In this document: in pieces, positions 202 through 55,556 of the stretch
Layout of the letters: every line of letters starts with the position of its first letter
How positions within the stretch are numbered: position 1 is the stretch's first letter
Source: a virus
Lineage: Duplodnaviria > Caudoviricetes
Direction: 5' to 3' (one strand)
DNA length: 64,000 nucleotides
IMG/VR virus record: IMGVR_UViG_3300037297_000386
Translations under genes and position numbers: made by a program
Notes under the pieces: model-generated
What the model saw: the letters and a program-made list of their open reading frames with translations, nothing else
Told to the model about the DNA's origin: nothing
Databases searched by the model: none

Positions 202-1200
202 CTCGCGTAATTTGTCATATAGCATTAAATCTTTATATATGCTGACAATTGGAGAAGTTCCATGTATTCCATATGAAGAGGTTAACATTTTCAAATGGCT
301 AACATGAAAATTATCCAACGGAATGTTGTTCCCCTTTTTAACATGATATAATATTTCTTCATCTATTTGTTTACGTAGCTGTATATCTGCAGGATTACTG
401 CTATGAACCAATCTTTGTAAAGCAGCGTCTGGTCGCATAGATATTACTGGGTCACCACCTAATACGGATGTTTTAACATGTATATAATCAGGGTTTTGGA
501 TAATTATATTGTTCCATATCCCTTTGTTTTCATCTAATTCAGCATATGGAAACACTTCACCCATTTTCCAAAATTCTAATGAAATAGATTGTAAAATATT
601 CACAAGATCTATCTCATCAGCCATATCTTTGAAAAATTGTTCTACTTTATGATCTTTACATTTTATATTTATTTTGCTTATAGGATATGTAGCATGCAAA
701 TTTATACAATTATGAACTAATGGATGGGTATCATAAAAATTCCTGTTCCACGCATTCATAGTTATACGATCCCGTGGTAATTGAAGGTTTGCAATCTGAA
801 ATAATGGAGAATATATTTCTGGAGCTTGTCTAATGGTACTTCCAGAAGCACCTAATCTATTTCCATCTGATACCGTAAGACCGGCCGTTTTACTAAGCCC
901 ATATGCCTCTCGTATTTCTTGAGATCTTTTGTATGAATTGCTATATACAATAATTGGGGACGGCCCAGATGAATTATTTGTGGTCTCAGTTGCTCTAATT
1001 AATTCTGTCTTTCGGTATTCTGATACGCCATCTGGGATAGATTCGTTATAAACAGAATTATCCCTATTAGATATATGATATTCTGAATTTGATACCCCTT
1101 CTTTTTTTAACTTGACCGAGCGAGCACCGTGGCGAGCAGTTTTAACAGTAGACAATTTATTTACTGGTTCTATCCTCCATTCTCCTCTTCGTATACCCAT
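1..1200 (-). CDS. Portal protein, interrupted by an intein and truncated by the window edge (absent from the ORF track)
   Basis: Hand translation gives a stop-free frame from ATG at 1200 to base 1 (MGIRRGEW...APEIYSPLFQIANLQLPRDRITMNAWNRNFYDTHPLVHNCINLHATYP...EFWKMGEVFPY...QNPDYIHV...LYDKLRE). It lies directly downstream of the terminase large subunit, where portal genes usually sit. Confidence 0.72.
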   Translation of the reverse strand, partial: MGIRRGEWRIEPVNKLSTVKTARHGARSVKLKKEGVSNSEYHISNRDNSVYNESIPDGVSEYRKTELIRATETTNNSSGPSPIIVYSNSYKRSQEIREAYGLSKTAGLTVSDGNRLGASGSTIRQAPEIYSPLFQIANLQLPRDRITMNAWNRNFYDTHPLVHNCINLHATYPISKINIKCKDHKVEQFFKDMADEIDLVNILQSISLEFWKMGEVFPYAELDENKGIWNNIIIQNPDYIHVKTSVLGGDPVISMRPDAALQRLVHSSNPADIQLRKQIDEEILYHVKKGNNIPLDNFHVSHLKMLTSSYGIHGTSPIVSIYKDLMLYDKLRECYSQDTEIITENGIIKGIDGIDFQTDKNGEVISAKVKPNLKIACYNSRTNQIEYHKPTGVHISKYKG

Positions 1201-1211
1201 CGTTTACCTCT

Positions 1212-3080
1212 TTATAACCCAGGCAAATATGCCAATATAGGTCCTGTACTTATTGCGTTAATCTGATGCGGTTTAATCTTAAACCCTTGAGTCAAATAAA
1301 ATTTATAAGCCAAATATGCGTACATCAGACTCATAAGCCCATCATTAGGACCAGAACCCTTCACATATCTAGTAATTACTCTTCCCTGAAATGTTCTAAT
1401 TTCTTTTTCCATTGAACAACAATGTTCTATTAACCACTGTATTCGTTCATAACTAACCCATGGAAACATGACTTTACTTTTTCTCATATTATTAAACAAA
1501 TCTTCCAACATTATGTGTGGATTACAAATAAGTCTAAGATCTTCAGAATCATATTTAACTGGGTTTATCAAACTTCCACTACTAAGGCAACCTATTACAC
1601 GAGATCCATATTCTCTTTGTAATTCTGGAACAATATCATTAGCATGTCCAAGGTCCGCTACAGCTATTTGAATATTAAATCTTCTAAACATCTCATCTAC
1701 TACATCTTTTTTGTGTTGAAAATTATTGCGTTTTAACTTAAAAGCATTTTCTATATGCATAATTCCATCTTTACTAACAGAAATAACTACTACAGATGAA
1801 AAGGATTTACCTCCTCTAGAGTTAAAAGTATCATTTTTCTCACCCCAGTCAATACCCATAAAAGTTGGCGAATAATTATTATTAACAACTTTGTAATTAT
1901 TATTTTTTTGAATTGAAGGAGATCCAAATGATATCTTCTTATTTACATCGCGACAATATTTATAAATTTCCTCTTCTGACATGGGTAAATCAGATCCACT
2001 ATAAAATTCTCCAAGAATTTCATTCTGCCAAATTCTTTCCGAATTCGTTGGATGTATTCCTGGCTTTTCCTTGAGTATAGTCTCTTTATGGAAAAATGGT
2101 ATTAATAATTGATTAAAATGGAAACCGACATATTGTGGCTCACTGCCATCTGGCAATTGCGTCTGGGACGAAACCCATTTTCCTCTTTCCACAGCTTGCA
2201 CCTTATCTTGTTGATGCTGACATTTTGGACACTCAACTATATTTCCAAATAACCATATCTTTTCCCAGTCATCGTTCCCAGGAGTGTATAACATAAAATA
2301 TTCTGAACAATTCTCACAGTGTAGATGATAGTATCTTTTATCAGAGGCATCCCACATTTTATGAAAATTGGATCCACGCTGCAACGGTGTGCCAAAATAT
2401 AATTGTATTCCTTGCCCTTTAGGCCCATATCTGGATGCAGTCAAAGTTCTTTTGCTATTTCCAATATCATCTTGATTCATACGCTGAACTTCATCATAAA
2501 ATATACCGTCTAATGACATACCATGAAGCCTTTGTGCATCATTGGCATTTGAATCGACCCAAAGTTTGTTTTCATTTTTAAATTGTTTTTCCGTAAGCGT
2601 ATCATCTGGAACATCTATCCTACGTCGTCCAGTTTCATTATCAAGAGACAATGATTGTTTTAGCACATAGTTATTGTTCGATGTTCGCATCATAGTACTA
2701 AGTTTATCTTTAGCAAATTTTTGTACTAATGCTAAAGCCGGGAAACAGTGTAAAATTCTAATTGGAGGCCTACCTATAGAGCCGCCAAATAATCCGCTGG
2801 TGCAAAAATATAACTCAAGGGCAGTGGCCATAGTAGTAGCACCAACTTGTCTTCCCTTCACACAAACGACAGGTTTTCCATTTTGACCTAATGCTTTAGT
2901 TGCAATATAACGATAAATGTCAGCTAAAAATTTCCATCCCGTTCCACCACCAAGTTCTAGCGGCTTTCCATCAATAGTAAGATATTCAGATGCAAAAAAA
3001 ACGGGATCTACTTTTAATACTTCTTTCTTTAGATCCTCGAAATATTTTTCTACTGTATGATTTGATTTATTGTTTACCAC
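1212..3080 (-). CDS. terL: Terminase large subunit (GpA-like ATPase, zinc finger, nuclease)
   Basis: Walker A-like KGRQVGATT, Walker B IFYDEVQ, FGTP motif, CENC...CPKC zinc finger, RNase H-like MGIDWG. Confidence 0.9.
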   Translation of the reverse strand: MVNNKSNHTVEKYFEDLKKEVLKVDPVFFASEYLTIDGKPLELGGGTGWKFLADIYRYIATKALGQNGKPVVCVKGRQVGATTMATALELYFCTSGLFGGSIGRPPIRILHCFPALALVQKFAKDKLSTMMRTSNNNYVLKQSLSLDNETGRRRIDVPDDTLTEKQFKNENKLWVDSNANDAQRLHGMSLDGIFYDEVQRMNQDDIGNSKRTLTASRYGPKGQGIQLYFGTPLQRGSNFHKMWDASDKRYYHLHCENCSEYFMLYTPGNDDWEKIWLFGNIVECPKCQHQQDKVQAVERGKWVSSQTQLPDGSEPQYVGFHFNQLLIPFFHKETILKEKPGIHPTNSERIWQNEILGEFYSGSDLPMSEEEIYKYCRDVNKKISFGSPSIQKNNNYKVVNNNYSPTFMGIDWGEKNDTFNSRGGKSFSSVVVISVSKDGIMHIENAFKLKRNNFQHKKDVVDEMFRRFNIQIAVADLGHANDIVPELQREYGSRVIGCLSSGSLINPVKYDSEDLRLICNPHIMLEDLFNNMRKSKVMFPWVSYERIQWLIEHCCSMEKEIRTFQGRVITRYVKGSGPNDGLMSLMYAYLAYKFYLTQGFKIKPHQINAISTGPILAYLPGL

Positions 3081-3859
3081 TATTGTTTGGCTCCATCATA
3101 TTTCATAAAATCAGCAATTTCATCGTCGTATTCTTCATTTGCATCAGTTCCAACACGTCCTACATCAGAAAAATTTGATTCTTGTATAGTGCCATCACTA
3201 AAATAATTCTTCCGATCTTTTAGATATTCTATAAGTTCGTCATCTGTGAAACTCACATCTTTATCTAGCAAATTACGTAAAAAATATATTAGTGAATGAA
3301 TGCTTTTTGTTCCACCACTATGTTTACAATGACTATCAATAGCACTTTGTAATTCTGGATTATTCTTAATTTGTCTTACTATCGATTCAGTTTGTTCATT
3401 AGCATGTCGTATTGACAATGGTTTAAAAGAAGTATAGGTATCTTTAGAAAATAATTCAACCAGTTTAGAATGTACTTTTTGTAGCGAATCTTTAAGTTGT
3501 TCTTCCGGAATATACCTTGTTTGAGCCGGCTGAGAAGTAATCCATTTGTTTAGTTCCTCTTCACTTAATCCTTGTTGTTTTATATGTTCTAATGATTTGT
3601 CTAATTGTTGTTGCGACCACCAAAATGATACCTGATAAAATGTCCGTCCTTTTCTCTCTATAATTTGACCAGTAATTATACCAGCTCCCTTGTCTGGATC
3701 ATTTATTAATTCTACCACATCACCTCTTTTCCATTTAGATTGTGCCCGTTTATTCAAATAATCTTCAAGCGAGTCATAAGAGACAACTTTACGAATAGAA
3801 GCATCGTATTTTTCTGCACGATTGGTTAATTTTGCAATGGATTTGATATATTTAACCAT
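3080..3859 (-). CDS. Hypothetical, probably head-associated protein with an SH3-like segment between two K/R-x-A motifs
   Basis: 259-aa ORF with LNKRAQ, then WKRGDVVEL...GIITG...YQVSF (SH3-like), then PLSIRHAN; acidic C-terminus; adjacent to terL. Confidence 0.45.
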   Translation of the reverse strand: MVKYIKSIAKLTNRAEKYDASIRKVVSYDSLEDYLNKRAQSKWKRGDVVELINDPDKGAGIITGQIIERKGRTFYQVSFWWSQQQLDKSLEHIKQQGLSEEELNKWITSQPAQTRYIPEEQLKDSLQKVHSKLVELFSKDTYTSFKPLSIRHANEQTESIVRQIKNNPELQSAIDSHCKHSGGTKSIHSLIYFLRNLLDKDVSFTDDELIEYLKDRKNYFSDGTIQESNFSDVGRVGTDANEEYDDEIADFMKYDGAKQ

Positions 3860-4010
3860 TTACTTTTGCTCCCTTTTTAAGGTTTTCTTCTGCCCAAAGT
3901 GACCTACATTCTTTACAATCCGACCTATATCCATCCGACTTCTGTTTATCTTTGGTAAATGCTGAATACGGTTTTTCTTTACAACATTTAGTACATTTCT
4001 TAAGTTTCAT
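3852..4010 (-). CDS. 52-aa zinc-finger protein resembling the N-terminal domain of HNH homing endonucleases (below ORF-track cutoff)
   Basis: Hand translation MKLKKCTKCCKEKPYSAFTKDKQKSDGYRSDCKECRSLWAEENLKKGAKVNG; same CxxC...F.K...KDG....CxxC pattern as the N-terminus of the HNH ORF at 46301-46822. Confidence 0.6.
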   Translation of the reverse strand: MKLKKCTKCCKEKPYSAFTKDKQKSDGYRSDCKECRSLWAEENLKKGAKVNG

Positions 4011-4012
4011 AA

Positions 4013-5227
4013 CTATTTGTCCACTTTAACTTCTTTTTGTGGTTTGTCTGGGCGAAGTCGTGAATAACCCATGTGTCTAAACTTGCCACTTTCCATTTTT
4101 TCTTGGTATGAGACTTCTATAACAACTACTTTACCGTTATCAATCTTTTTTCTAACCTCTTGCTCTTCTTCTTTTGGCAATCCAGATAATTTACCAACTT
4201 CTACCAATTTTCCATTATAATATTGATATGCAGGAAATACTAATTTGTCTTCTCCCTTATTATACTTATTTAATATAACCTCATCAGTCTTAGCTTTAGC
4301 CCCAGGTTTAAATTTGGCCCATTCACCATATGGTTCATTAGATCCTTTTGCACCATATTTATATTTCGAATCTTTTGGTTTTAATACAATACCTTCAGCG
4401 TTTACTTTTAATGCATCATTAATTGCTTTATCTTTGTCTGAATATGTATAATTATCTACTATCTTAATTGTATCTGTTCCTTTACCAATTAATTCTTTTA
4501 GTTTATTATATCTTTCAATATAATCCTTCTTGGTAATATCATCACCATTAAACCACAATAAATCATAAACATAAAATAATGCTTTTCCGTTACCACTTTT
4601 AATTTTTTCTTGTGCTTTCTCTGGAGAACTGTTAACTACAGTTTGGATATCCGATATAGATTGTTTACCATTTTTATCTTCCCATACAAGTTCACCAAGA
4701 AAAAAACTCCCATTTTCCATTTTATCTTCTAAATCTTTTACTAGGCTTGGCACATTTGAACTAAAATCTTCTCCGCGCCTCGTGTACAATTTAACAGCAC
4801 CAGCTTTATCCTTGATTGCCTGTGTTTTAAAACCATCTAATTTAATTTGTATTATTATATTACTATCATCATTATTTTTTAGAATATCATCCGGGTTCTC
4901 TAATTTTTTTAATTTCATCGGCGCAATGGGGCCAATTCCACTTGCATGTCGTAATGATAGAGGCCTATAAATAATATTAGCCTGTTTTATTTTATTTCGT
5001 GACTCTGAAGAACTTGACTCTGAAGAACTTATTGTATCCAAACCAACTTGCTCACGATAATTTTGAACAATATTTTCAACACTTTCAGATTTTTTATTAT
5101 TAATAGTATTTAAAATATCTTGGACAGATGATAATTCGTGTTTTGCTAATGATTGTAAAAATTCACAAAACCAATCACCGCCAGATTCTGACAACATTTG
5201 TAAGTCGTTGCGCGATACTTTTACCAT
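4013..5227 (-). CDS. lig: ATP-dependent DNA ligase with a ~95-aa N-terminal extension
   Basis: Motif I QIKLDGFK, III FLGELV, IIIa FYVYDLL, IV EGIVLK, V WAKFK, and a short OB domain (VEVGKLSG...VIEVSYQE...GKFRH). Confidence 0.92.
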   Translation of the reverse strand: MVKVSRNDLQMLSESGGDWFCEFLQSLAKHELSSVQDILNTINNKKSESVENIVQNYREQVGLDTISSSESSSSESRNKIKQANIIYRPLSLRHASGIGPIAPMKLKKLENPDDILKNNDDSNIIIQIKLDGFKTQAIKDKAGAVKLYTRRGEDFSSNVPSLVKDLEDKMENGSFFLGELVWEDKNGKQSISDIQTVVNSSPEKAQEKIKSGNGKALFYVYDLLWFNGDDITKKDYIERYNKLKELIGKGTDTIKIVDNYTYSDKDKAINDALKVNAEGIVLKPKDSKYKYGAKGSNEPYGEWAKFKPGAKAKTDEVILNKYNKGEDKLVFPAYQYYNGKLVEVGKLSGLPKEEEQEVRKKIDNGKVVVIEVSYQEKMESGKFRHMGYSRLRPDKPQKEVKVDK

Positions 5228-5237
5228 GATTATCCTC

Positions 5238-5414
5238 TTATATACTAATTTCTATTTTCCAAGTATTATCATCTGGACATTCATCTATTATATCATTGAT
5301 TTCAATATATAGCCTATCTCTAATTGGATCGTGGTTTATCTTATTAAATTCTTCATAAACCACTATATCATTGATTATTTCGTATAACTCCTCAGGAATA
5401 CTAATATTACTCAT
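5238..5414 (-). CDS. Small acidic hypothetical protein, 58 aa (below ORF-track cutoff)
   Basis: Hand translation MSNISIPEELYEIINDIVVYEEFNKINHDPIRDRLYIEINDIIDECPDDNTWKIEISI; fills the gap between two co-oriented genes. Confidence 0.45.
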   Translation of the reverse strand: MSNISIPEELYEIINDIVVYEEFNKINHDPIRDRLYIEINDIIDECPDDNTWKIEISI

Positions 5415-5426
5415 AATAATCGCATC

Positions 5427-6353
5427 TTAAGACTGGTAATTGGTTAGCCAATCCACACCATCGCCAGACGCCGGATCAGATGGTTCATTAATCAATCCTC
5501 TATCACGATATAATGGATAACCATAATCATGAACTAATTGTTGAATAGCTAACTCCTCACGGGAAGTAAAATTATATTTATTTTTTAATTTTTCATAAGT
5601 TTCTTCTATATTGCGGCCAGCAGATACCTTAGAATTTATCATTGTTCCAACTATTGCACGCTCAAATGCACTAACATACACATTGATTATTGGAGTATTA
5701 GCAGTTTTTTCTAATCCATCATTATGACGTATTTTCTCACTTTCACAACTCATGCACACAAGTGTGTCATTAATTGTATCATGCCACATTGGAGCAGAAG
5801 AATTACATTTATCGCAATGGCCCTCAGATACTAGACGTACATCCATCGAAGCCTTTTTCTTGCCTGTTAACTTCTTAATTTGTCTATCTAATCTATCGAT
5901 CATATCTTCCAAGCTTTTTCTAATCTGGTCAATTTCTTGTTCATCGATGACACCTTTTAAATCAGTCCTCATAGCTTTACTAATTTCACTATCTAATTTT
6001 TTTAAAAAAGCTTTGGCTCGCTCACATCCAGGGACAGTCTCTCCGGAATGTCGAGGAATTTTGGTTAATTTATCTTTAACATAATTTACAAAATCCGCAT
6101 GATGTCCGTCCTCTTTCCATGTTTTCGGTTTATCATCATCTGCTTTGGCTTCCTCAAATTTACACCCAGGAGCACCAGGAACTTCTAGAATCATCCCTTC
6201 TTCATTTGGATTTTCCTCTACTATTAATATCTCAGGCATATCGATATCATCTTCATCTATCACAAGATTTTCGTCATTTTCTAAAAGAAAATCTTGTGAT
6301 TCATTAACCATTATAGTATCATTTGTCATGTCATAGAAATTTGTCATTTCCAA
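5427..6353 (-). CDS. Hypothetical head-region protein (acidic N-terminus, helical core, CxxC...CxxC zinc ribbon)
   Basis: 308-aa ORF with SD GGAGG; CDKC...CMSC flanked by KKKAS and LEKTAN. Confidence 0.5.
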   Translation of the reverse strand: MEMTNFYDMTNDTIMVNESQDFLLENDENLVIDEDDIDMPEILIVEENPNEEGMILEVPGAPGCKFEEAKADDDKPKTWKEDGHHADFVNYVKDKLTKIPRHSGETVPGCERAKAFLKKLDSEISKAMRTDLKGVIDEQEIDQIRKSLEDMIDRLDRQIKKLTGKKKASMDVRLVSEGHCDKCNSSAPMWHDTINDTLVCMSCESEKIRHNDGLEKTANTPIINVYVSAFERAIVGTMINSKVSAGRNIEETYEKLKNKYNFTSREELAIQQLVHDYGYPLYRDRGLINEPSDPASGDGVDWLTNYQS

Positions 6354-6366
6354 TCCTCCTGGTTAC

Positions 6367-7299
6367 CTAAAACTGATTTCTTTCATATAATAATTGTTTG
6401 AATTTATCACGTTTTCTTTTTAAATATATACTTGAATTTTCATACATCCAATTTCCCAATTTTATTGAGTCATGTGTCGAATAAGAAATTTTATAAATAT
6501 TACTTTGTTTAACATATCGAACATTTTTATTCCCTATCAATGTGCTTTCATTTATATATTTATTTATGTTTTCAAGCATATTCTTTGTACCGAGAAAGTA
6601 AGAACACCAAACACTTGTTGTTTTTGTCTTACTTATACACCCATCTCCGTCAAAATAACCTCTAATAAAATGTTTTATATATTTTCGCGGCATCTCTGGA
6701 AATTTAAGTGTTAAAGATTTTCTTGGAGTCACGCCCAATGTCACTAATCTGTTACACATATATTTAGAACAAATTTCAAGCGATACACATGATTTATTCT
6801 TAGATACGTATATTTTATTTTTTGGAGCTACTAAATTTCTTATAGCAATTAAATGTTCTTTATCTTTTGTTGACAATTTAATTCCTAATTTAAATCTGTT
6901 TTTTGATACATTTCCATCGGCAGCAATGAAGCCTAAAATATATGCCATTTCATCCGACCATTTGTCAAAAAAAGAATGATCAATTCCTGGTGGCATTTTA
7001 TATCTATTTAGACGTCTAATTCCATTCTTTACTGCCATTTTTCTTATGGCTGTCCATGGGCGCTTTATTTTGCACATTATTTCTTTTTTTGTTGCAACTG
7101 GAAACAATTTCTTTAACAATTTTATCTCTTTTTCTGTCCACTTATTATATTGATTATGTTTTTTAATACCTAACAAGTTAGCTCGCCTTTTAACAGAATT
7201 ATAACTACGACTTAATTTCTTTGCTATATTTTTACAAGATTCTTTTTTATAATTATTTATGATATAATTATCTTCTTCTTTGGCCCATATTTTACGCAT
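6367..7299 (-). mobile_element. Free-standing double-motif LAGLIDADG homing endonuclease
   Basis: AYILGFIAADGNV and HFIRGYFDGDGCI motifs; N-terminal repeats with W-x-x-x-E spacing. Confidence 0.9.
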
Positions 7300-7307
7300 A
7301 TTAAACC

Positions 7308-7997
7308 TTATCTATTTACCTGGCGTGGGCCAAACCATTTATCAGAAAGATGATATAACAAGCCTGTATCAGACCTTTTGTTTTCATATTTTTGCCTTTG
7401 TTTGGACAAGTACTTTTCAACTTTATCAAATGTTTTAGTATATTCTTCTTTTATCTTTTCTAATTTTATTAATAAGTTTTGTAATAAATCATCTTTTTCT
7501 GGTTTATCACATTTATCGTAATATTTCACACTTAATTTAACAAAATTGTTTATTTCGCGTCCTAATAAACTAAATAATCCAAAGAATAGATTACGACTCT
7601 CATTGTTGTCGGCATAAAAGCCTAAAGGATATCCATATAATCCATCTAATCCTATTCCATGAAAAGTTTGTGGAAATAATGGACTGCCTCTAAAAGCAGG
7701 GACTCTTTTGCCAGCCGCAGTATCGCCAAAATCACAATCTACCTTTCCATATTCATCTAATATTTTATCAGCATATGGACACTTACGACATTCTTTATGA
7801 TAAGCATAAACCAGTCTATTTGCTTTAGCTATTCCATCTGATTCTTTTTCATCCTCAATTGGTGCCATTCTTATAATAGAGTTTCCAGCATTTTCACAAC
7901 CCTCTGGAATCGGTAATCCAAATGGGCAATTACGAACATTTTTACCACGAATTGTTGACTCTTTTACAACAACAGATATGCATTCTGTTCTATTCAT
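7308..7997 (-). CDS. Cys-rich hypothetical protein
   Basis: 229-aa ORF; CPFGLPIPEGC, CRKCPY, CDFG; overlaps its upstream neighbour. Confidence 0.5.
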   Translation of the reverse strand: MNRTECISVVVKESTIRGKNVRNCPFGLPIPEGCENAGNSIIRMAPIEDEKESDGIAKANRLVYAYHKECRKCPYADKILDEYGKVDCDFGDTAAGKRVPAFRGSPLFPQTFHGIGLDGLYGYPLGFYADNNESRNLFFGLFSLLGREINNFVKLSVKYYDKCDKPEKDDLLQNLLIKLEKIKEEYTKTFDKVEKYLSKQRQKYENKRSDTGLLYHLSDKWFGPRQVNR

Positions 7998-8487
7998 TGT
8001 GACTCCAATAATCTAAATTAGAACGCCAAAAAGATGGGGCAGTATCTTCACACTCATCGCCACCTTTATCGCCTTTATTACTTTTTGATTTATCTTTAGC
8101 AATTTTAGTAGAATTATACTCGATCGAACCCCTAATGCCAGCGACAGAATTAGAATCTGGAACATCCTTGTAATCATTTTTACCAAATAATCTAGAAATA
8201 GCAGCCCAACTTTTACCAGTTATTTCTCTAACTAAATTCTCAAAGTTTGATCGATCATTTGCATCATCCGCGGATTGTGCTGTTTGTTGCTGTATTTTGG
8301 ACTTCATTTGCTCTAACGATGTAACTTGGGTTTCTATATTTCTTATTAATTCATTAACCATATTCAGCTGATTTGGAAGATCCCTAAGCATAGGAGACAA
8401 TCTGTTTAATTCATTTTTTAATGTTTGAATATTTTGCATTGTCGTGGTAGAAGCCATATCTTGCGCAAGTTTGGAAATTCTTTTCAT
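7990..8487 (-). CDS. Hypothetical coiled-coil protein
   Basis: 165-aa ORF; N-terminal ISKLAQ then heptad-rich segment. Confidence 0.45.
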   Translation of the reverse strand: MKRISKLAQDMASTTTMQNIQTLKNELNRLSPMLRDLPNQLNMVNELIRNIETQVTSLEQMKSKIQQQTAQSADDANDRSNFENLVREITGKSWAAISRLFGKNDYKDVPDSNSVAGIRGSIEYNSTKIAKDKSKSNKGDKGGDECEDTAPSFWRSNLDYWSHNE

Positions 8488-9255
8488 TTAAAGGGCCCTC
8501 ACTAATCGTCTTTGTTGTATTAGTATATCAGAAAGTGTTTTGGTTAATGGAACTAATGGAAGAAGTTTAAATTTAATTAACATTTCAATACCATTGTCAT
8601 CATCTATCTTGGCAATTTCAGTTATTTTATCTTGCACAAATTTTACTGGAAGATTTTGTATTTTTTTACGATTATTTAACATAGCTGTTTTCAGTTTTTC
8701 TTCTATTTTAAATCCAAATTTCACAGCAAACTTTATAGCTCTCAAAATTCTTCTTGGATCAACACCAATTGTTATATCTGGATTAATAGGGCATTGAATA
8801 ATACCAGACTGTATATCTCCAATACCATCACCAGTTAAATCATATATTGAAGAAAAATCTAAACTTTCAAGGAGAGTGTTTATAGTAAAATCTCTACTAT
8901 ATAATTCTAATTTCATAGAATCTATATCTTTAACCCCTTTTTTTCTGAGATCATCTTCAATACCTGAAATAATAAAATTACTTGAAAAATCGATGTGTAG
9001 CCCCATAATATCTATTGAAGCGTGACCGTCATCATATATCTTATAAGAACTATTAGGAATTTCTTTGTTTAATTTTTCGGCTAATAACAAAGAATCCTTA
9101 GATCCTGTGGTTATATCTATATCTTTTAAATTTGACTTACCACTACGTTTACCTAATATTCGATCTCTTGGGATGCCACCAACAATAAAAGGCTTATCAA
9201 ACTTGGACACGCGGGCAATATGTTGTATTTGTGATAATAGATCATCAATTTTCAT
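8488..9255 (-). CDS. Class II nucleotidyltransferase (CCA-adding enzyme / poly(A) polymerase family), head and neck domains only
   Basis: IVGGIPRD, catalytic DIDIT, RDFTINTL, DPRRILRAIKF. Start placed at MKIDD (9255) to avoid overlap with the upstream gene. Confidence 0.88.
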   Translation of the reverse strand: MKIDDLLSQIQHIARVSKFDKPFIVGGIPRDRILGKRSGKSNLKDIDITTGSKDSLLLAEKLNKEIPNSSYKIYDDGHASIDIMGLHIDFSSNFIISGIEDDLRKKGVKDIDSMKLELYSRDFTINTLLESLDFSSIYDLTGDGIGDIQSGIIQCPINPDITIGVDPRRILRAIKFAVKFGFKIEEKLKTAMLNNRKKIQNLPVKFVQDKITEIAKIDDDNGIEMLIKFKLLPLVPLTKTLSDILIQQRRLVRAL

Positions 9256-9259
9256 TATT

Positions 9260-10729
9260 TTATTCCGTTGGTAGTTCTTTCTTAATTTTCCCAACTGGTT
9301 TGCTCATCAATTCACCAGTGTCTATTTGTTTAGTTACCGGCACAGATGGTTGTTTTGGTATAACAGGGATAGGTGCTTGTTCGAGTGTCTCATCCCTATT
9401 TTTCGTACCTGATCCACTACCACGCAATTTGGCTATTATATTTTCAATCTTGTTGCTTGCATATCCAAATGATTCTATCATTTTGGCTTGGGCATCTGTT
9501 AATTCTGGAAAATAACTTGCCATACCAAGATCGTTTAACAAAATATCGATACTAGCCAATTCACGTATCATATCACGCGATTTAAGCGATTTACTTATAG
9601 ACTCGAGACGATCTATAATAGTTTGTATAGTAGACATCTGGGTACTTTGTGGCGGTAGATCTGGATCTTTTGATTTTGCTTCTGGTAAAGATTTTAACAC
9701 TTCACTATCAATTTGATCTTCTGCGCACTTATATAGATAAGCGGCCCCTTCGATAAATCCACATTTGTTCATTATATTAGCAGAACGAATTACACAATCT
9801 TGTAAAGAAGCATAAACGTCCAATTTATTTACACTCTTTTCCAATTTATAAAGTTCGTCATACACATTATCTAAATCTTGTTTAGGCAAAACATCATTAT
9901 ATTTTTCTACTAATCTTTTAAAGGAGCGTAGTCGTGCTTTCATTTTATTTTTAAACTGTTTAGCCTTATGTAGCTCTTCTTCACGTTTTGTATATTCTTG
10001 TTTTTTCTGTCTTGTGGACATATACATTTTATCGTTTGAGCGATCTTCTCTATTTACCCAAGACTCAGGAATAGAAAAAGCTGGCTCAAATGCTTTCTTG
10101 ATGAATTCGGCGGTTTTCACGTTATATTTCTCCGCAGTTCCATCTTCATAATATCGCATCCAATTTATAAATTTTTGTTTTTCATCTAAATCCCAATTTA
10201 ACGTAAAATTATTTATTGCATCTTTACGATTAAACCTTTTATTATGTATAGAAGTATAAATATTCTTCAACGTGTTAATCCATTTATCAATGTCATAAAT
10301 TTGCCCTCTATCTTCTTTACCAGATATATTAGGATAAGCTTGTTTCGATAACTTATTACATAACCATTTATAAATCAACAATCTATAATCAGTCAAATCA
10401 TCTAAATTATAATCTCCGCCACGTCTATGTTCCATCATAAAATGATGTAAATCTTTCCTTTTATGCGGGTCAAGCTTTATACCAAAAGTGTCATCTAAAA
10501 TATCATCAGAAAATCGTAAAACAAAAAAATAAGCATTATAATCATCTTCATTATCTACACCTAAATCACTGGCATATTGGGCATCTTCAAGTAATTCATC
10601 AACCAATGCCTCATCTACACCATTTTGTGTAACTTCCTGAAGACGCTTTTTCATATAATTATTAATTGTGCCTTTTTTAAATGCTTGTGAAATTTTATTT
10701 ATCATCGAGTTCCTCTTCGAATTCGGCAT
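9260..10729 (-). CDS. Hypothetical head-region protein with several K-x-A motifs
   Basis: 489-aa ORF; LSKQAY, VKTAE, IKKAF, LYKCAE. Confidence 0.5.
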   Translation of the reverse strand: MPNSKRNSMINKISQAFKKGTINNYMKKRLQEVTQNGVDEALVDELLEDAQYASDLGVDNEDDYNAYFFVLRFSDDILDDTFGIKLDPHKRKDLHHFMMEHRRGGDYNLDDLTDYRLLIYKWLCNKLSKQAYPNISGKEDRGQIYDIDKWINTLKNIYTSIHNKRFNRKDAINNFTLNWDLDEKQKFINWMRYYEDGTAEKYNVKTAEFIKKAFEPAFSIPESWVNREDRSNDKMYMSTRQKKQEYTKREEELHKAKQFKNKMKARLRSFKRLVEKYNDVLPKQDLDNVYDELYKLEKSVNKLDVYASLQDCVIRSANIMNKCGFIEGAAYLYKCAEDQIDSEVLKSLPEAKSKDPDLPPQSTQMSTIQTIIDRLESISKSLKSRDMIRELASIDILLNDLGMASYFPELTDAQAKMIESFGYASNKIENIIAKLRGSGSGTKNRDETLEQAPIPVIPKQPSVPVTKQIDTGELMSKPVGKIKKELPTE

Positions 10730-11423
10730 CTTGTAGGTCTTCTAATTTTACTGGCTCTAATAATGCTTGTGGTCTATATGATGTATTAGATATTTTTCTA
10801 TTAAGTCTTTCTAAAAACATCATTGCCTTCTCCGGTTCAAAATAATCAATACATTCGCGTATTACATCCTGTATCATTACTATTTGATCGTTAAACACAG
10901 TAATATTTACATTATGATCAACAGTTTTATCTGCCAATCCTTCTACAAATTTTTTATACTGGCCAAGCAAATTCATTTGTCTGTCCATAAATTGCCTTAA
11001 TTCTTTATCTCCTTTAGATGCTTGTTCTTCACCACTTGCTACAGCGTTAAACCAATATTCCATTCTCGTTTCTATAATTTTGTCTAATTCCAATATTCTT
11101 CTTGCCACATCTAGTTTGGAATCAACTATTTCATTTATCTTACGATTATAAGCATCTGAGGCTTCAAGCTGCTTTTGCCGTTCTTGTTCCTCTTCTATTT
11201 GTTTTTGAGTGCGTCCGGCTTCTTGTATATCTTTAAGAACTTTTCCTTCTAATTGTAAATTATCTTTTCTAAATTTTTGAAGTGTTACCGACGAAAGCCA
11301 TAATTTCTTATTACTAGAATATTTAGATTTTAACCAAGCTTCTATTTTTCTGACAGATTCTCCGTTATTAAGTTTCTCAATTATTATTTCTTTATCTGGA
11401 TGATTTAATATTTTCTTACTCAT
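10695..11423 (-). CDS. Helical protein with N-terminal HTH-like segment (possible terminase small subunit or regulator)
   Basis: HPDKEIIIEKLNNGESVRKIEAWL suggests an HTH; long coiled coil; acidic tail; within the packaging block. Confidence 0.35.
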   Translation of the reverse strand: MSKKILNHPDKEIIIEKLNNGESVRKIEAWLKSKYSSNKKLWLSSVTLQKFRKDNLQLEGKVLKDIQEAGRTQKQIEEEQERQKQLEASDAYNRKINEIVDSKLDVARRILELDKIIETRMEYWFNAVASGEEQASKGDKELRQFMDRQMNLLGQYKKFVEGLADKTVDHNVNITVFNDQIVMIQDVIRECIDYFEPEKAMMFLERLNRKISNTSYRPQALLEPVKLEDLQDAEFEEELDDK

Positions 11424-11538
11424 AATCGAATCTCTTTGCCGCGATGTTCATTATAGTAGCCTTTTACAAGATTATATGTTTGTGAACTATTAGGACATTT
11501 TCCAGTCTTTATTTTGTTGACAATACTTACCACATTTC

Positions 11539-12675
11539 TTAATTGACGACATTTAGAATTTTCTCCCTTGAGTCAAACAGTCTATGTGGTACAGAATAGC
11601 CAGCAGAATCAGGAGTTTGTGCAGCAACCGAAGATCCTGGATGTTCATTCCCATCATAATCTGTCCATCCAGTTTCCCAATTATACACCTGGCCATCTAT
11701 CGGGCATTGATAAGTATTTTCTCCAATCCTACCCATCATCACACCAATATGTTGTGGGCAATGACGAATGCTTAAATGCCCAGCATCTACATGTTGTTGT
11801 GTATTAACATGATGTTTATCTCTCCCTTCGCGATCTATCCTTTCTTGCTCAGTTTTCGGTTCTCGGGTTTGAAGGGAATGGTGATATTTAGAATCATACC
11901 TCTTGCTTTGTTCTGTATCACCTTCACCTTTATAGTCTAAAAAATCTTCAGCCTGCTTTTTAATAAAATTGTCTATAAGATTTGCCTCTTCAATTGCCCC
12001 GACTTTATCTAATCTATCGGCTAAATCAGCGAGTTTTTCAAATGTCTTGCCTGTAGCGCCAAGACTCAACTCCTGGTGTTCTGCTGGAGGAGGAAGAGCA
12101 CCTTCATCATCCTTTACACCATATTGTTCATAATGATTATCCAAAAGCTTTTTCAGATTATTCAGATTATTTTCATGTGGATGCTTAAAATACACATCCA
12201 AGAAAGTTAAAATATGATTTACCCAATCAACTTTGCCAAACTCATCTTCTTCTATATATCTATCTTCGTAATCTGCATGTTTTTGCATTTGATTCTTGAG
12301 TCCAGCAAATATTCCACCTTCTCCAGGGCCATATTCTTCTGACCATTTTATATATTTTGCTAATTCATGTACTAATTCATCATAACGTTCTGCCGTTGGA
12401 TTGCTCAAAAATTCTTTAACCATTTTAGGTATTGTTGATGATTGTTCTCTAGCACCTGGTATACTTTCTACTAATGGTACTTTAGTTTCTTGATATGATT
12501 CTACTGGTTCATATTCTGGTAAGTCCAAAGACACTTCATTTCCATTTTTTACTACATTGTTATTCAATTTAGACAAACCCTCAATTAAACCATCAATTGC
12601 TGCAGCTTTTTCAAATTCACCTTTCTCATCTAAATGATCAGCTAAAGCTATTAGTTCTTTTATATCAAATGTCAT
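11539..12675 (-). CDS. Hypothetical head-region protein with a duplicated helical module and a C-terminal Cys/His motif
   Basis: ELIALADHLDEKGEFEKAAAIDGLI and KLADLADRLDKVGAIEEANLIDNFI; CPQH...CPID near the C-terminus. Confidence 0.5.
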   Translation of the reverse strand: MTFDIKELIALADHLDEKGEFEKAAAIDGLIEGLSKLNNNVVKNGNEVSLDLPEYEPVESYQETKVPLVESIPGAREQSSTIPKMVKEFLSNPTAERYDELVHELAKYIKWSEEYGPGEGGIFAGLKNQMQKHADYEDRYIEEDEFGKVDWVNHILTFLDVYFKHPHENNLNNLKKLLDNHYEQYGVKDDEGALPPPAEHQELSLGATGKTFEKLADLADRLDKVGAIEEANLIDNFIKKQAEDFLDYKGEGDTEQSKRYDSKYHHSLQTREPKTEQERIDREGRDKHHVNTQQHVDAGHLSIRHCPQHIGVMMGRIGENTYQCPIDGQVYNWETGWTDYDGNEHPGSSVAAQTPDSAGYSVPHRLFDSREKILNVVN

Positions 12676-12685
12676 TTTTTTCCCC

Positions 12686-14434
12686 TTATGCCATAAATAT
12701 TTTAGCTGAACTCATAGCTGCTCCACTTTCATTGCTTGGATTCAGCTTTTCTCTTTCTACTGCCGTACGTAGTCTGCAATTACCATCCTCTCCAACTACT
12801 ACCTTGTGCATTGGCACACCAAAATGCCCACAACGAGGATATATAGACCCTTGACCAGCTGGAATCATTTTTGAACATGATTTTTGTTCATTATTTTCCA
12901 AATTAGCTTGCTGCATAAGAATATAATGATAATCTGCGACAGCATTTTTAAAATCCTCTTCAGGAAATTTATCTTCTATCTCTCCTAGCACTGCTTCACA
13001 TGTAACATAATCTTTGTCGCTAGCCGCTTTAAGTATCTCATCTTTCAATTCCGGAAGAGTCATATAAGAAAATGCTGTTGAACAAGATATATTTGAACTG
13101 GAAGGCGCTGGCAAACTTATAGCAAAACGTTGTAGCTTATAAGTTGTAAAATCCTCAACTAATCCATCATAAGCGAAATAAGTTGGTAACAACGGTAAAT
13201 ATTTATCACCAGCTACTGCTTGCATTTCAATTGGGACTTCTATTTCAGCTGGTCCTTTAGGAGTATTAATAGTAGCCAAATAAACAACAGAGTCCCCACT
13301 TTCGCTGCCAAATTTTACTTGAGCATTCTTAAATCCTGCCGATATTAACTCTTTGGCAACCATTTCTTTACCTTTGCGAATCGTATCCATACCAAATATA
13401 CTGGCAGCTTCGAGAATATCGTCTTCAAAATCTCTAGCTAGATGTGCAAGTTCTTGCGGCATCTCAACATTTTGCGTTGTGTCAATATTCGGTCTTCCCT
13501 CTTCATATTCGCGATTAACAAAAAGATTTGGTACATTCATGTCTATATCTTTATCAGCATCTTCAAATAACCCTTCAATATTAGTACGCATTTCATCGTC
13601 TGTGGCCGCCATTTTAGTATATCCAGTTAAAATACCAACCACTGTTAATACATCAGAAGCTTTTGGAACACTGAAGTCATTACTTTCTGATTTAGCATCA
13701 ATAAAATATTCCAGATTATTCTGTGTAAGCTCTTTGAGATGTGTATTAGCGACAAAAGTACTAGGAAATAGAACCCTGTTATCTCTAATTTCGGTAGGGA
13801 TAGCAACTGTCACTCTACCCTTCCTTGTATTAAAATGTGCTGCATATACTATAATATTAGGGTCTCCGCCCATTATTTCCACATCATAATCTTTTTGTCC
13901 AAGTGCCTGAAGTTCCGCTGATACAAACCCTATTCCGTCCTGAGCAATCCTTTGATCAAATGCTTTAATTGAATCAATACTTCCACCAAATACTGATGTT
14001 AAAGCATTTACAAGATTTGGATTAGTCATATCATCTGTCGTTATATGTGAATCCTCGGCATCAATACGATTCATTCTAGTATAATCCTGGTTCCTTGACG
14101 AAAAATCGGCCTTCTTATTCAAAAGAAGATGACCCAAGATGTCTCTAAATTTAGATTCACCGCTCAAACGAACAAAATGATTGTGAATTTCAGATATTTG
14201 AGATTGATTTATAATTTCACCTGGAGGAGCCTTCTCTGCCATTTTTTCAATAGTAGATGCAACCTGCCTAATAACAGGATCCTCTGGATAACGTTCATAT
14301 GCAGCACGAGTAACATTATAAACGTCCTCAAGCATAAACTCTTGCCCATTTGTTGTAGCATCGAGCGCTGCTTTAGCGATTCGGGCTAATTCGCCAATGT
14401 TTAAACTGCCAGTCATGTTTGTGTTCTCCTCCAA
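12686..14434 (-). CDS. Large hypothetical protein with internal duplication
   Basis: 582-aa ORF; two similar segments (FNTRKGRVTVAIPTEI and INTPKGPAEIEVPIEM); central YTKMAA; C-terminal Cys cluster. Confidence 0.5.
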   Translation of the reverse strand: MEENTNMTGSLNIGELARIAKAALDATTNGQEFMLEDVYNVTRAAYERYPEDPVIRQVASTIEKMAEKAPPGEIINQSQISEIHNHFVRLSGESKFRDILGHLLLNKKADFSSRNQDYTRMNRIDAEDSHITTDDMTNPNLVNALTSVFGGSIDSIKAFDQRIAQDGIGFVSAELQALGQKDYDVEIMGGDPNIIVYAAHFNTRKGRVTVAIPTEIRDNRVLFPSTFVANTHLKELTQNNLEYFIDAKSESNDFSVPKASDVLTVVGILTGYTKMAATDDEMRTNIEGLFEDADKDIDMNVPNLFVNREYEEGRPNIDTTQNVEMPQELAHLARDFEDDILEAASIFGMDTIRKGKEMVAKELISAGFKNAQVKFGSESGDSVVYLATINTPKGPAEIEVPIEMQAVAGDKYLPLLPTYFAYDGLVEDFTTYKLQRFAISLPAPSSSNISCSTAFSYMTLPELKDEILKAASDKDYVTCEAVLGEIEDKFPEEDFKNAVADYHYILMQQANLENNEQKSCSKMIPAGQGSIYPRCGHFGVPMHKVVVGEDGNCRLRTAVEREKLNPSNESGAAMSSAKIFMA

Positions 14435-14437
14435 AAA

Positions 14438-15154
14438 TTATGCTTCCAAAAACTCTGCATTAAGTTTGTTTAATATATCTACTATTTGTTCTCTATCAAA
14501 ATCTCCAACTTTTCGAATCGCATAAGCTGCCATTTGAACAGCTTCTGCAATGTCGTCTTCTCGATCAACGGATTCTTGCCCTAATGGTTCTTCTTCAAAT
14601 CCTTTACTCAAATCTTCTTCATAATCTCGTCTTTCTTGCCAGTAAGGATCATTTTGTCGTTCCCATTCTGTTGGTGGCTCAGCAGCCAACGATCGTAATT
14701 CAGGAAATCTCGAAACTAAAGAATTTAATTTATCTTTTGGCTGTGAATTTAAAAATTTAGATGTAAAATTTTTATCTGATGCCAATTTATTAATTAGACT
14801 TTTTTGGAAAATATGTATATCTTTATTTGTGAACCCATATTCGGATGAAGAAAATCGTTGAATAGGATAATTTTTATACACAAGAGTGATATTTCGGCCA
14901 CCGCGATCTGATAATGCTTTCCAATGGCTTTTAACTTCTAGCGCTTGAGACTCAACGTCATCATATTGAGCAACCAGATATTGGTCTCCATCATCACTCT
15001 CTTCCAAAATCCATAATGATTCTACGGGAGAAGAGTTCAATTGAAACACATCAAATGCAATTTTTGTGAATAGATGTTTGTTTGATTCATACGGTATTTT
15101 ACTATTATTAGGTGTCACATCCTTGGCTAATTTAGTCCAATCTAAAGTTTCCAT
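14438..15154 (-). CDS. Hypothetical protein with acidic C-terminal segment
   Basis: Start placed at METLDW behind AGGAG; acidic segment follows LRSLAA. Confidence 0.5.
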   Translation of the reverse strand: METLDWTKLAKDVTPNNSKIPYESNKHLFTKIAFDVFQLNSSPVESLWILEESDDGDQYLVAQYDDVESQALEVKSHWKALSDRGGRNITLVYKNYPIQRFSSSEYGFTNKDIHIFQKSLINKLASDKNFTSKFLNSQPKDKLNSLVSRFPELRSLAAEPPTEWERQNDPYWQERRDYEEDLSKGFEEEPLGQESVDREDDIAEAVQMAAYAIRKVGDFDREQIVDILNKLNAEFLEA

Positions 15155-15349
15155 TACACAGCTCCTACGAAAATTTTCAAATATAGGGACTGGATAAACC
15201 ACTCCCGACACTATTAGAATAGAATATTGATAGAAAGCGTGGATTTATAGTAAGATGGGAGATTTTTATATTAAAATAAAAAAATCGACGGGATTTTTTG
15301 CATCCGGAGCGAAAAAATTCGGATGGGATAAATGATTATTTTAAAACGC

Positions 15350-15381
15350 AAAAAAGCCGGATAACCAAAAGATTATCCGGC
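15350..15381 (-). terminator. Rho-independent terminator after infC
   Basis: Perfect 9-bp stem GCCGGATAA/TTATCCGGC with 8-nt loop, followed by six U on the minus strand. Confidence 0.85.
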
Positions 15382-15405
15382 ACTTAATTAAATCTTTATA
15401 TTTGT

Positions 15406-15882
15406 CTATTTTTTGGTAGGAATCAAGAATGCAGTTAAATTTCGTCCATCGAATTCAGACATTTTATCTACCACTGCTAGATCAGAATTAAGCAATGAAT
15501 TAATTATAAAATTCATTTTTTCTAAACCAATATCTTTTAATACTATTTGCCTTGCTCTAAATTGCATAGTTATCTTGGTTTTTAAACCTTTTCCAAGAAA
15601 TTCTTTAATATGTTTTAATTTTATATCCAAATCGTGTTTGTCTATCGAAGGACCAATTTTAACTTCTTTAACTTTATGGGTTCTTCTATGTGATCTTTGT
15701 TTCTTTTGGCGTTTCCTCTGTTCATATTTTAATTTGCCGGCATCGACCATCCTATATACATTTTTGGCCACCATTATAATGCTTTTATTAAATTCTTTAG
15801 CCTTTTGTTCTGCAATCTCGATAGACATATTACCAACTTTTCTACCATCTTCTCCAATAAGTATGACATTCATATTGTTCAA
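15406..15882 (-). CDS. infC: Translation initiation factor IF-3
   Basis: VILIGEDG..VG.M, DAGKLKYEQRKRQKKQR linker, VKEVKIGPSIDKHDLDIKLKHIKEFLGKG.KTKITMQFRARQ, DGRNLT. Confidence 0.9.
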   Translation of the reverse strand: MNNMNVILIGEDGRKVGNMSIEIAEQKAKEFNKSIIMVAKNVYRMVDAGKLKYEQRKRQKKQRSHRRTHKVKEVKIGPSIDKHDLDIKLKHIKEFLGKGLKTKITMQFRARQIVLKDIGLEKMNFIINSLLNSDLAVVDKMSEFDGRNLTAFLIPTKK

Positions 15883-15908
15883 CTTTCTTTTTTAAAGACC
15901 CAATAAAC

Positions 15909-16367: not shown

Positions 16368-16381
16368 TCATTCCTCCTAAT

Positions 16382-17529: not shown

Positions 17530-17574
17530 ATATTTCTCCTTGATTATCTTATCAAAATACTAATTTTTACATTA

Positions 17575-54362: not shown

Positions 54363-55556
54363 TTACATTCCTGTTCCTACTACTGTATATTTATTACTAG
54401 TAAATATTTTCTGTGCAACTTGGTATACATCTTCTACAGTTACTGCATCTATTTCTGATAAAAATTTAGATCCGATTGTATAATCAAAAAATTCTTTATA
54501 TATTGACTGCATAGTTGCCGAATTTGAAGAATCTAATGATTTATAATAAGAACTACGTATTATATTTTTTGCTCTCTTTAGTTCATCATTAGTTGGGCAA
54601 GAGGATTTCATTTTTTCTATTTCTTCATCAATAGTATCTGTAACTTTATCTCTATTTTTAGGTTCAGTAGAAGTATAAATTTGATATACGCTACCGTCCA
54701 TGTGATGGTCATTATATGATCCTATGCCACATACTAAACCAAGATCTTCACGAACTCTAGTAAACAATCTAGACGTATCGCTGGACCCGAAAATAGTCGA
54801 AAATACTTTTATTTTAGCACGATCTTTAAGTGAGGATATCCTTAATGATTCTCCAGCAAAACCAATAGATATTGAATCTTGAATTTGTCCATCTTTATGT
54901 ATTATATCGTATGATGGTTGCTTGTATGTAATATTATTTGTTTGTGCGGGATATAATAATATATCATCCGGAATATTAAAATATTTTTCTACAAGATCCA
55001 TGCGATCTGACGGAGATCCTAATGTTATTAACATATGCTCATTGGTATAAAATTCTTTATTAAATTTTGTTATATGATCACGTGTTATAGAATTAACACT
55101 TTTTTCTGTGCCGACAATTGGAGATACCAAAGAGTTATCTTTAAAAATATTATCAACCATCTTATAGTAAACCAACCAATCTAAATCATCTTCATACATT
55201 TTAATTTCTTGACAAACAACATCTTGTTCTTTTATTAACTCATCCTCTGGAAAAATTGGGTTTAGTATAATATCAGAAAGACACTTAAAAGCAGTTTCAA
55301 TATTCTCTTCAGGAATACTCATATGATATAATACAAGATCAGCACTTGTCCATGCATTCCATGAACCACCATAGTCTGCTGTTTGTTTTAACAGATCCTT
55401 CGCTGTATATTTTTTAGTACCCTTGAATCTCACATGTTCCATATAATGTGCTATACCTTTTGGATATGTACTATTATATTCAACTCTAGATCCGGCACCA
55501 AAAGCTATCATTAAAGTTGATAATTTACTCGGATGCTTTACAAATTTATATTTCAT
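54363..55556 (-). CDS. M16-family zinc peptidase
   Basis: Inverted zinc motif HYMEH in GIAHYMEHVRFKG, NAWTS, EQDVVCQEI, SRLFTRVREDLGL. Confidence 0.93.
   Translation of the reverse strand: MKYKFVKHPSKLSTLMIAFGAGSRVEYNSTYPKGIAHYMEHVRFKGTKKYTAKDLLKQTADYGGSWNAWTSADLVLYHMSIPEENIETAFKCLSDIILNPIFPEDELIKEQDVVCQEIKMYEDDLDWLVYYKMVDNIFKDNSLVSPIVGTEKSVNSITRDHITKFNKEFYTNEHMLITLGSPSDRMDLVEKYFNIPDDILLYPAQTNNITYKQPSYDIIHKDGQIQDSISIGFAGESLRISSLKDRAKIKVFSTIFGSSDTSRLFTRVREDLGLVCGIGSYNDHHMDGSVYQIYTSTEPKNRDKVTDTIDEEIEKMKSSCPTNDELKRAKNIIRSSYYKSLDSSNSATMQSIYKEFFDYTIGSKFLSEIDAVTVEDVYQVAQKIFTSNKYTVVGTGM

Follow-up and report, generated by a model that had tools for sequence, protein, structure and literature searches.

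The window, a 64-kb stretch (64,000 nucleotides) of the IMG/VR virus record IMGVR_UViG_3300037297_000386 (Caudoviricetes), is a piece of an uncultured phage genome of roughly 400 kb, a size taken from the CheckV completeness of the fragments that represent its relatives. We describe here a short peptide signal that is found in giant proteins of those relatives and, in relaxed form, in the proteins encoded by the first 15.2 kb of the window (the block). The minus strand carries all the genes of the window, and the G+C content is about 31%. An earlier reading of the sequence (the original prediction) had noticed a hydrophobic-x-K/R-x-A motif recurring across a "head-gene block" and had ascribed it to a prohead maturation protease. 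For most of the genes that label is wrong. Searches of PHROGs and Pfam identified a portal protein, the large terminase (TerL), a DNA ligase, an endonuclease and a tRNA nucleotidyltransferase (Table 1); they found no family for the open reading frames (ORFs) 3080, 7308, 9260, 10695, 11539, 12686 and 14438, and the 5427 and 7990 ORFs are likewise without family assignment. Judged by these profile matches, only two packaging or head genes are recognisable in the block. From 15.4 kb onward the window encodes an initiation-factor-like protein, a sigma factor, a primase, UvsX and SSB and, later, a lysin, a tail fibre, an M16 peptidase and GroEL.

Table 1. Motif sites, helical-hairpin tags and genes of the window.
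Feature	Position	Strand	Remarks
LSKTA, portal residues 102-106	883..897	-	h-x-K-[TSN]-A; Lys/Arg and Ala each kept in 12/13 relatives; flank identity 0.45
VNKLS, portal residues 13-17	1150..1164	-	N/S-K-x-A in 12/13 relatives (h-N/S-K-x-A); Ser replaces Ala in the window
LSIRHA, 3080 ORF residues 148-153	3401..3418	-	six-residue variant at a two-module junction; RPLSIRHA in nearly all 13 relatives
LSLRHA, ligase ORF residues 90-95	4943..4960	-	directly ahead of the ligase domain (profile match from residue 98)
LEKTA, 5427 ORF residues 214-218	5700..5714	-	L-[ED]-K-T-A-x-T-P; three motif positions kept in 13/14 relatives; flank identity 0.52
GKKKA, 5427 ORF residues 164-168	5850..5864	-	conserved G-x-K-[KR]-A-[AS]
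ISKLA, 7990 ORF residues 4-8	8464..8478	-	extreme N-terminus (MKRISKLA); canonical ISKRA or LSKRA in relatives
LYKCA, 9260 ORF residues 332-336	9722..9736	-	L-x-K-x-A-x-E-P; three positions kept in 10/10 relatives; flank identity 0.40
LSKQA, 9260 ORF residues 127-131	10337..10351	-	conserved; LSKKAYPN in relatives
IKKQA, 11539 ORF residues 238-242	within 11950..12042	-	ends the second helical-hairpin tag
LNKRA, 3080 ORF residues 35-39	3743..3757	-	Lys/Arg kept in 0/13 relatives, which have FLxSFA
12686 and 14438 ORFs	12686..15211	-	ten strict matches, mostly unsupported: non-conserved or inside conserved helices
First helical-hairpin tag, 11539 ORF residues 5-32 (N-terminus)	12580..12663	-	tag hidden Markov model (HMM), independent E-value 3e-11
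Second helical-hairpin tag, 11539 ORF residues 212-240	11950..12042	-	tag HMM, independent E-value 3e-14
Portal, N-terminal 400 residues	1..1200	-	phrog_16240, E = 5e-33, match begins at residue 120; gene continues past the left end of the window
Large terminase (TerL)	1212..3080	-	phrog_675, E = 3e-58
ATP-dependent DNA ligase	4013..5227	-	profile match from residue 98; 89-residue N-terminal leader
Homing-type endonuclease ORF	6367-7299	-	phrog_4645 and N-terminal D5-like/HNH-like region
tRNA nucleotidyltransferase (CCA-adding enzyme)	8488-9294	-	PHROGs/Pfam profile search
M16 (insulinase/pitrilysin-type) zinc peptidase	54363..55556	-	Peptidase_M16 4e-25, M16_C 4e-26; HYMEH (HxxEH intact) at residue 37

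Is the loose motif more frequent in the block than composition alone would give? All the strings listed in the original prediction are present in the ORFs to which it assigned them, and several of them (IKQAN, KKKAS, VKTAE, LRSLAA, LSIRHAN and LSLRHAS) deviate from the spacing that it gave. With expected counts derived from the composition of each protein, the proteins of the block contain 26 copies of the strict pattern [LIMVFY]-x-[KR]-x-A where 10.2 are expected; none of 1000 shuffles reached 26, a count to be read with the caveat that the motif was picked from the same data. Outside the block the pattern stands at about 1.15 times expectation, with 20 occurrences at 15.4-39 kb (16.8 expected) and 15 at 39-64 kb (13.4 expected). 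As a control, the three residue classes were placed in each of the 60 ways that fit within five positions, and every such arrangement was counted. That of the original prediction comes first in the block (26; mean 12.6, standard deviation 3.6) and, outside the block, 12th, and because of this difference we regard the enrichment of the block as something other than a generic effect of helices or composition. Almost all of the excess lies in the 9260, 11539, 12686 and 14438 ORFs, which together hold 18 matches where about 4 are expected; elsewhere in the block there are 8 against 6.2.

We then aligned each protein of the block with 3-14 homologues from the loci of relatives and scored the 25 strict matches that could be aligned. 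Relative to residues of the same type elsewhere, conservation was 0.72 versus 0.68 for Lys/Arg, 0.75 versus 0.63 for Ala (p = 0.04) and 0.85 versus 0.84 for the hydrophobic position. About nine of the 26 strict matches are not conserved, among them LNKRA in the 3080 ORF, LNKKA in the 12686 ORF and INKLA in the 14438 ORF, as is the listed string LRSLAA of the latter; others, such as LQRFA (434) and FTKIA (48) in the 12686/14438 ORFs, are conserved yet uninformative, and so is VQKFA, the sole match in TerL, which lies inside the conserved ATPase region (flank identity 0.86). It could be argued from these figures that the loose motif is a by-product of helical proteins containing Ala and Lys, combined with post hoc choice, and that its copies in the window have no function: taken together, its positions are kept no better than other residues, and the window contains no exact ISKRA at all. 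We consider this explanation very improbable, given the rank of the arrangement among its permuted controls and given that about ten sites are conserved amid variable flanks and align column-for-column with canonical sites of the polyproteins described below. The loose motif combines real sites with matches that arose by chance; about half of the strings listed in the original prediction are supported as sites, and the other half are non-conserved or lie within conserved folded regions. The original prediction had also named the lack of enrichment over the replication genes and the lack of positional conservation as computational grounds against it; the block proved to be enriched, and positional conservation was found for the subset of about ten sites, but not for the class as a whole.

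The conserved sites keep Lys and Ala while their flanks are clearly more variable (Table 1). First, in the portal protein, LSKTAG occupies residues 102-107 as had been described, at the border between a variable N-terminal region of about 100 residues and the conserved core; the distant relative L013 lacks this site. A further portal site, at residues 13-17, had escaped the original prediction because the window has Ser in place of Ala. Second, two relatives (L021 and L012) have a homologue of the 9260 ORF whose start coincides with the motif, which in the window lies inside the ORF at residue 127. Third, the block contains three copies of the sharper pattern [IL]SK.A (0.24 expected), all of them conserved; the other 49 kb of the window also have three (0.70 expected), none of which is kept in a more distant relative. 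As a separate observation on the portal, the portal genes of two relatives, L007 (5704-8757; 1017 residues) and L004 (12566-14953; at least 796 residues), exceed the usual 640-680 residues, which suggests insertions or C-terminal fusions in the encoded proteins.

AlphaFold2 models of the 9260 and 5427 ORF products, built from the homologue alignments, are of modest quality (mean predicted local distance difference test scores of 60 and 64), with domains resolved. In the predicted 9260 product, LSKQA ends the helix at 112-127 and is followed by a low-confidence segment at 128-141, and LYKCA ends the helix at 326-337, ahead of a low-confidence segment at 338-366. In the predicted 5427 product, GKKKA ends the helix at 138-164, ahead of a low-confidence segment at 167-175, and LEKTA falls in a low-confidence linker (210-225) with a zinc ribbon on one side and a C-terminal helical domain on the other. 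All four conserved sites that were modelled are therefore placed by AlphaFold2 at a helix end or in a linker beside a low-confidence segment, and they bear out the earlier statement that the motif sits at domain-like borders. Foldseek searches with both models against BFVD and the PDB gave nothing below an E-value of 0.001. Apart from the motif, a zinc-ribbon-like segment (Cys-x2-Cys ... Cys-x2-Cys) is present in each of four ORFs without family assignment (5427-6353, 7308-7997, 11539-12675 and 12686-14434), and the 5427 ORF matches the ribosome hibernation factor family PF02482 below threshold (22.2 bits, cut-off 23.7).

The signal takes its sharpest form in the relatives. Those in IMG/VR have TerL identities of 68-81% to the window, with two more distant at 44% on contigs of 221 and 472 kb; the nearest entries in a separate phage collection, at 25% TerL identity or less, are distant relatives only. 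L013 and L015, on IMG/VR contigs of 221 kb and 472 kb from different samples, have an identical 21.8-kb locus. In the relative L014 the portal gene is followed by a 111-residue ORF and then by an ORF of 2621 residues, and L006 has a complete ORF of 2366 residues. Pfam identifies topoisomerase IB, a CCA-adding enzyme with an HD domain and a 2H phosphoesterase in these two giants, and [ILF]SKRA recurs between the enzyme domains, which begin 29-37 residues past a copy of the motif; no copy lies inside a Pfam or PHROG domain envelope. A search of a large protein collection returned 43 giants of 1.3-3.8 thousand residues with shuffled domain sets, some of which also contain DNA and RNA ligases, a LigD phosphoesterase, SET and PAP2; NUDIX is found as a separate small ORF of L021. 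Two further features of the L014 giant (14239-21876; complete in L018, 78-7943) are repeats of about 55 residues with a D-P-x-x-F-F core, at residues 1-700 and 1770-1880, and regions at about 1260-1420 and 1520-1660 that resemble M15/VanY-type peptidases by eye, a resemblance that Pfam did not confirm.

Motif statistics were computed on the 38 closer giants (78,993 residues). An unbiased count of exact 5-mers places ISKRA (89) and LSKRA (69) as the commonest, 5-mers conserved through homology reaching at most 30 when the overlapping SKRAK (43) is excluded; the two together amount to 158 copies of [IL]SKRA where 0.23 would be expected. When the first four positions are held constant, Ala closes the motif in 158 cases, Asp in 8 and Ser in 8; the main variants tolerated are [IL]S[IV]RA and [IL]SKLA. 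A copy lies within the first 20 residues in 21 of the 38 giants. Small ORFs past the L021 giant start with MYISKRA or MHISKLA, and the genes past this giant contain the strict motif 23 times against 12.6 expected. In the five distant giants without ISKRA, we found no alternative recurrent motif. The codons at the sites are free to vary (16 distinct 15-mers at 17 sites, with both TCN and AGY for Ser and both CGN and AGR for Arg); selection therefore acts on the peptide, and a signal at the DNA level was rejected on the same ground. These observations show that a signal of the [IL]SKRA type exists, that it is under selection at the protein level, that it lies at module junctions and that it is conserved at about ten positions in the window. 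Its consensus is Ile/Leu-Ser-Lys-Arg-Ala, with the relaxed forms h-x-Lys-x-Ala and Leu-Ser-[Ile/Leu/Val]-Arg-[His/Gln]-Ala.

The DNA ligase links the window to the giants. Residues 89-402 of the window ligase are 69% identical to residues 2275-2586 of the giant P0007, in which the ligase module is bracketed by LSKRA (2277) and ISKRA (2593); on this alignment the window ligase is the free-standing counterpart of a polyprotein module. The N-terminal border of homologous ligases reads LSLRHA in the window, LSKRA in P0007, MSIRQA in P0023 and LSVRQA in P0020, and has the form h-x-K-x-A in L008, L009, L011 and L012. In L001 (19168-20718) a 516-residue protein consists of an N-terminal part, RPLSLRHA, the ligase, RPLSIRHA and a C-terminal part; in L014 (8816-9403) a 195-residue protein, the product of a conserved gene directly upstream of TerL, consists of the N-terminal part, RPLSIRHA and the C-terminal part, without the ligase. 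From these two arrangements it follows that the ligase is a cassette inserted at the site, and that the site was duplicated. The cassette lies between duplicated RPLS[IL]RHA copies in L001, L008, L009, L011, L012 and L021 (4104-5852). At 3080-5227 in the window, the ligase fusion gene is split into the ligase ORF and the 3080 ORF, and the latter has gained a different N-terminal module with 30% identity to residues 1551-1695 of the giant P0035. We considered the three copies of LS[IL]RH in the window as a separate motif and rejected this idea: two of them are the homologous junctions of one split gene and represent a variant of the same site, and the third (11539 ORF, residue 301) reads LSTRYCP in relatives and is part of a zinc-ribbon region.

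In the 11539 ORF the motif is associated with a portable element, a helical hairpin of about 28 residues (L-A-D-x-L-D-x-x-G ... A-x-x-I-D) that we refer to as the tag. A tag HMM detects 36 copies in relatives, mostly N-terminal on otherwise unrelated proteins, and these typically end in I-D-x-h-h-x-K-x-A, that is, with a relaxed site at a fixed offset. Tag copies were rejected as the cause of the block enrichment, the recognisable tags holding only three of the 26 strict matches. The constant position of the motif behind a portable tag, its frequent location within the first 3-14 residues of a protein and its basic Lys-Arg core might indicate a docking motif that is never cut, serving at the N-terminal border of each module as a tag for capsid targeting or for binding to scaffold, portal or DNA. 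The near-invariance of Ile/Leu, Ser and Ala, however, fits the subsites of an enzyme better than an electrostatic contact, and the placement of the motif between independent enzyme modules, together with gene fission and fusion exactly at the motif, fits the release of parts. We therefore regard docking as unlikely.

If the signal is read by an enzyme, which enzyme might it be? In the distant relative G002, residues 101-215 of a 1216-residue ORF match the head-maturation-protease family phrog_18299 (E = 5e-15 to 3e-17). A homologous ORF of 1278 residues (36% identity over 618 residues), which we describe as a protease-scaffold ORF, is present in L021, a member of the clade that carries ISKRA; it contains KRRA-YW twice, ahead of repeated Gly-rich segments. 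The major capsid protein of G002 (339 residues) has LAKYA at residues 24-28. The gene for the head-maturation protease was found in relatives only, that of the phage studied here lying outside the window, and the capsid family phrog_2522 was not found in the fragments of the ISKRA-clade relatives.

The window does encode another candidate, an M16 zinc peptidase with an intact HxxEH motif, and the site might be read by this or some other protease in the cytoplasm, in which case the polyproteins would be a device of gene expression and there would be no need for the proteins of the block to be head cargo. Basic residues close to the scissile bond are recognised by members of the M16 family, mitochondrial processing peptidase and nardilysin among them, and a site cut after Ala, with Arg at P2, would agree with this. 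This explanation would also account for sites on enzymes without a role in the head. Against it, the two conserved portal sites and the position of the polyprotein between the portal and head genes point to the prohead. The M16 gene was not found in the fragments of four relatives, which is uninformative since these end before the syntenic region. Cleavage by a protease of this kind seems to us an outside chance, on a par with docking. At 54363-57769, the M16 gene adjoins a gene for full-length GroEL (phrog_5725, E = 5e-162), between a tail-fibre gene and small ORFs of unknown function.

We favour the reading that the signal is a cut site after Ala for a processing protease, and that this enzyme is the head-maturation protease; from the sequence data at hand we would assign it a probability of about 0.55. 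That cutting happens, where it falls and which enzyme performs it are all points that we infer. The clade would use the short peptide as a mark of module borders. In relatives, it would separate the enzyme modules of polyproteins of 1.3-3.8 thousand residues encoded just past the portal gene; in the window, it would recur in free-standing genes upstream of the terminase gene and in the N-terminal 106 or so residues of the portal protein. The protease would cut after Ala, with Ile/Leu at P5, Ser at P4, Lys at P3, Arg at P2 and Ala at P1. The likeliest candidate is a gp21-like head-maturation protease, made in relatives as a protease-scaffold fusion, and its cuts may remove N-terminal leaders and release modules inside the prohead. 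Of the specificity in the original prediction, P1 Ala with P3 Lys/Arg, a narrower form would thus stand, with Ile/Leu four residues and Lys two residues before Ala at about ten conserved sites of the block and in the giants; its attribution to a set of head genes would not. The short leaders ending in the motif, such as MYISKRA and MHISKLA and those of the 21 giants, resemble leaders that head proteases remove, which supports this reading.

Several points weigh against head-protease cleavage. The gp21-type proteases T4 gp21, phiKZ gp175 and SPN3US gp245 cut many head proteins after Glu, at three-residue motifs (L/I-x-E, S/A/G-x-E and A-x-E), and not after Ala. Most genes of the block lack a demonstrated link to the head, and the ligase and other enzymes would need to be prohead cargo for a head protease to have access to them. 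The window has relaxed copies of [IL]SKRA only, and the loose motif as a class has no special conservation. The protease domain of L021 gave no match in sequence searches of Pfam and the PDB; its assignment consists of one PHROG family in a distant relative plus homology.

We further speculate, at somewhat less than even odds, that the signal is a five-residue punctuation code, read by a gp21-like protease whose specificity has changed, with P1 Ala, P2 Arg and P3 Lys in place of P1 Glu. Modules flanked by the code, such as the ligase, would be cassettes that can move between a virion-delivered polyprotein and free-standing genes, so that an injected nucleic-acid repair kit would be reshuffled, and the portal protein and several of the proteins without family assignment encoded upstream of the terminase would be processed in the same way. 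If the signal is a cut site, it represents a head-protease specificity not described for tailed phages, and a simple rule would allow the mature virion and cargo proteins of this entire clade of huge uncultured phages to be predicted from sequence alone. If the reading is true, double-stranded DNA phages can use true polyproteins with exchangeable, motif-bounded modules, and a five-residue site with a dedicated protease could be a tool for the targeted packaging and release of proteins in capsids.

Two other features of the window were recorded. The homing-type endonuclease ORF has homologues at three of 14 relatives' loci (L002, L009 and L012) and resembles a mobile element inserted between the 5427 and 7308 ORFs. 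At 62228-63971 there are four tandem paralogous small genes, whose products (117-153 residues) have in common an N-terminal LLHDAYTALLAGLTTKT segment and repeats of a MORN-like type (YWYLNGKLHREDGPA).

The proposed system can be compared with several that are known. We found no description of an [IL]SKRA motif in the literature searched. As with T4 gp21, phiKZ gp175, 201phi2-1 and SPN3US gp245, a single phage protease would recognise a motif of three to five residues in many proteins, and the motif recurs at putative borders between leader and mature protein: at the two portal sites, near the N-terminus of the 7990 product, of 21 of the 38 giants and of the small ORF products of L021, and in the capsid protein of G002. 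At a short A-x-E motif, SPN3US gp245 cuts off N-terminal propeptides that range from 20 to 254 residues, with the portal protein losing the longest (PMC10052503). By analogy with head proteolysis (PMC10052503), we propose that the protease would remove leaders of about 10-250 residues, that of the portal protein being a long one, and would also cut itself. Unlike the motifs of gp21-type systems, the signal ends in Ala and not in Glu, has Lys at P3 and Arg at P2 and consists of five residues with a nearly invariant core; multi-enzyme polyproteins, absent from those systems, would be among the substrates here.

The leaders also recall the capsid-targeting sequence of the T4 internal proteins and Alt, a short N-terminal leader that ends in a protease site, here putative, and that is carried by enzymes in the head. 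In the present case they are 3-13 residues ending in ISKRA, or a helical tag of about 28 residues ending in h-x-K-x-A. The two differ in that there is no sequence similarity and that the same signal is also internal, between modules; a role in targeting is putative here.

Polyvalent proteins of phages and conjugative elements combine many enzymes in one very large chain; their genes lie next to those for portal and terminase, and the proteins are predicted to be packaged and delivered with the DNA (Iyer et al. 2017, PMC5512222). The giants of the relatives resemble them in combining many unrelated enzyme domains beside virion genes, whereas the window's own genes are single-module. For polyvalent proteins, processing, if any, has been proposed to occur through an embedded zincin-like metallopeptidase, and no conserved punctuation motif between domains has been described (PMC5512222). 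In the L006 and L014 giants, large parts of which have no family match, the Pfam and PHROG scans list none of the signature domains of polyvalent proteins (MPTase, MuF, ArdC and ParB-like). The domain set of the giants (topoisomerase IB, CCA-adding enzyme, 2H, LigD phosphoesterase and ligases) is that of a nucleic-acid end-repair kit. Finally, as in the polyproteins of RNA viruses, with their sites for picornavirus 3C and potyvirus NIa, independent modules are separated by a fixed short motif for a viral protease, proposed in our case, and are exchanged as cassettes; in contrast to those viruses, these are tailed phages with double-stranded DNA, their proteases are of unrelated kinds, and modules found in the polyproteins are also encoded by free-standing genes, each with its own leader.

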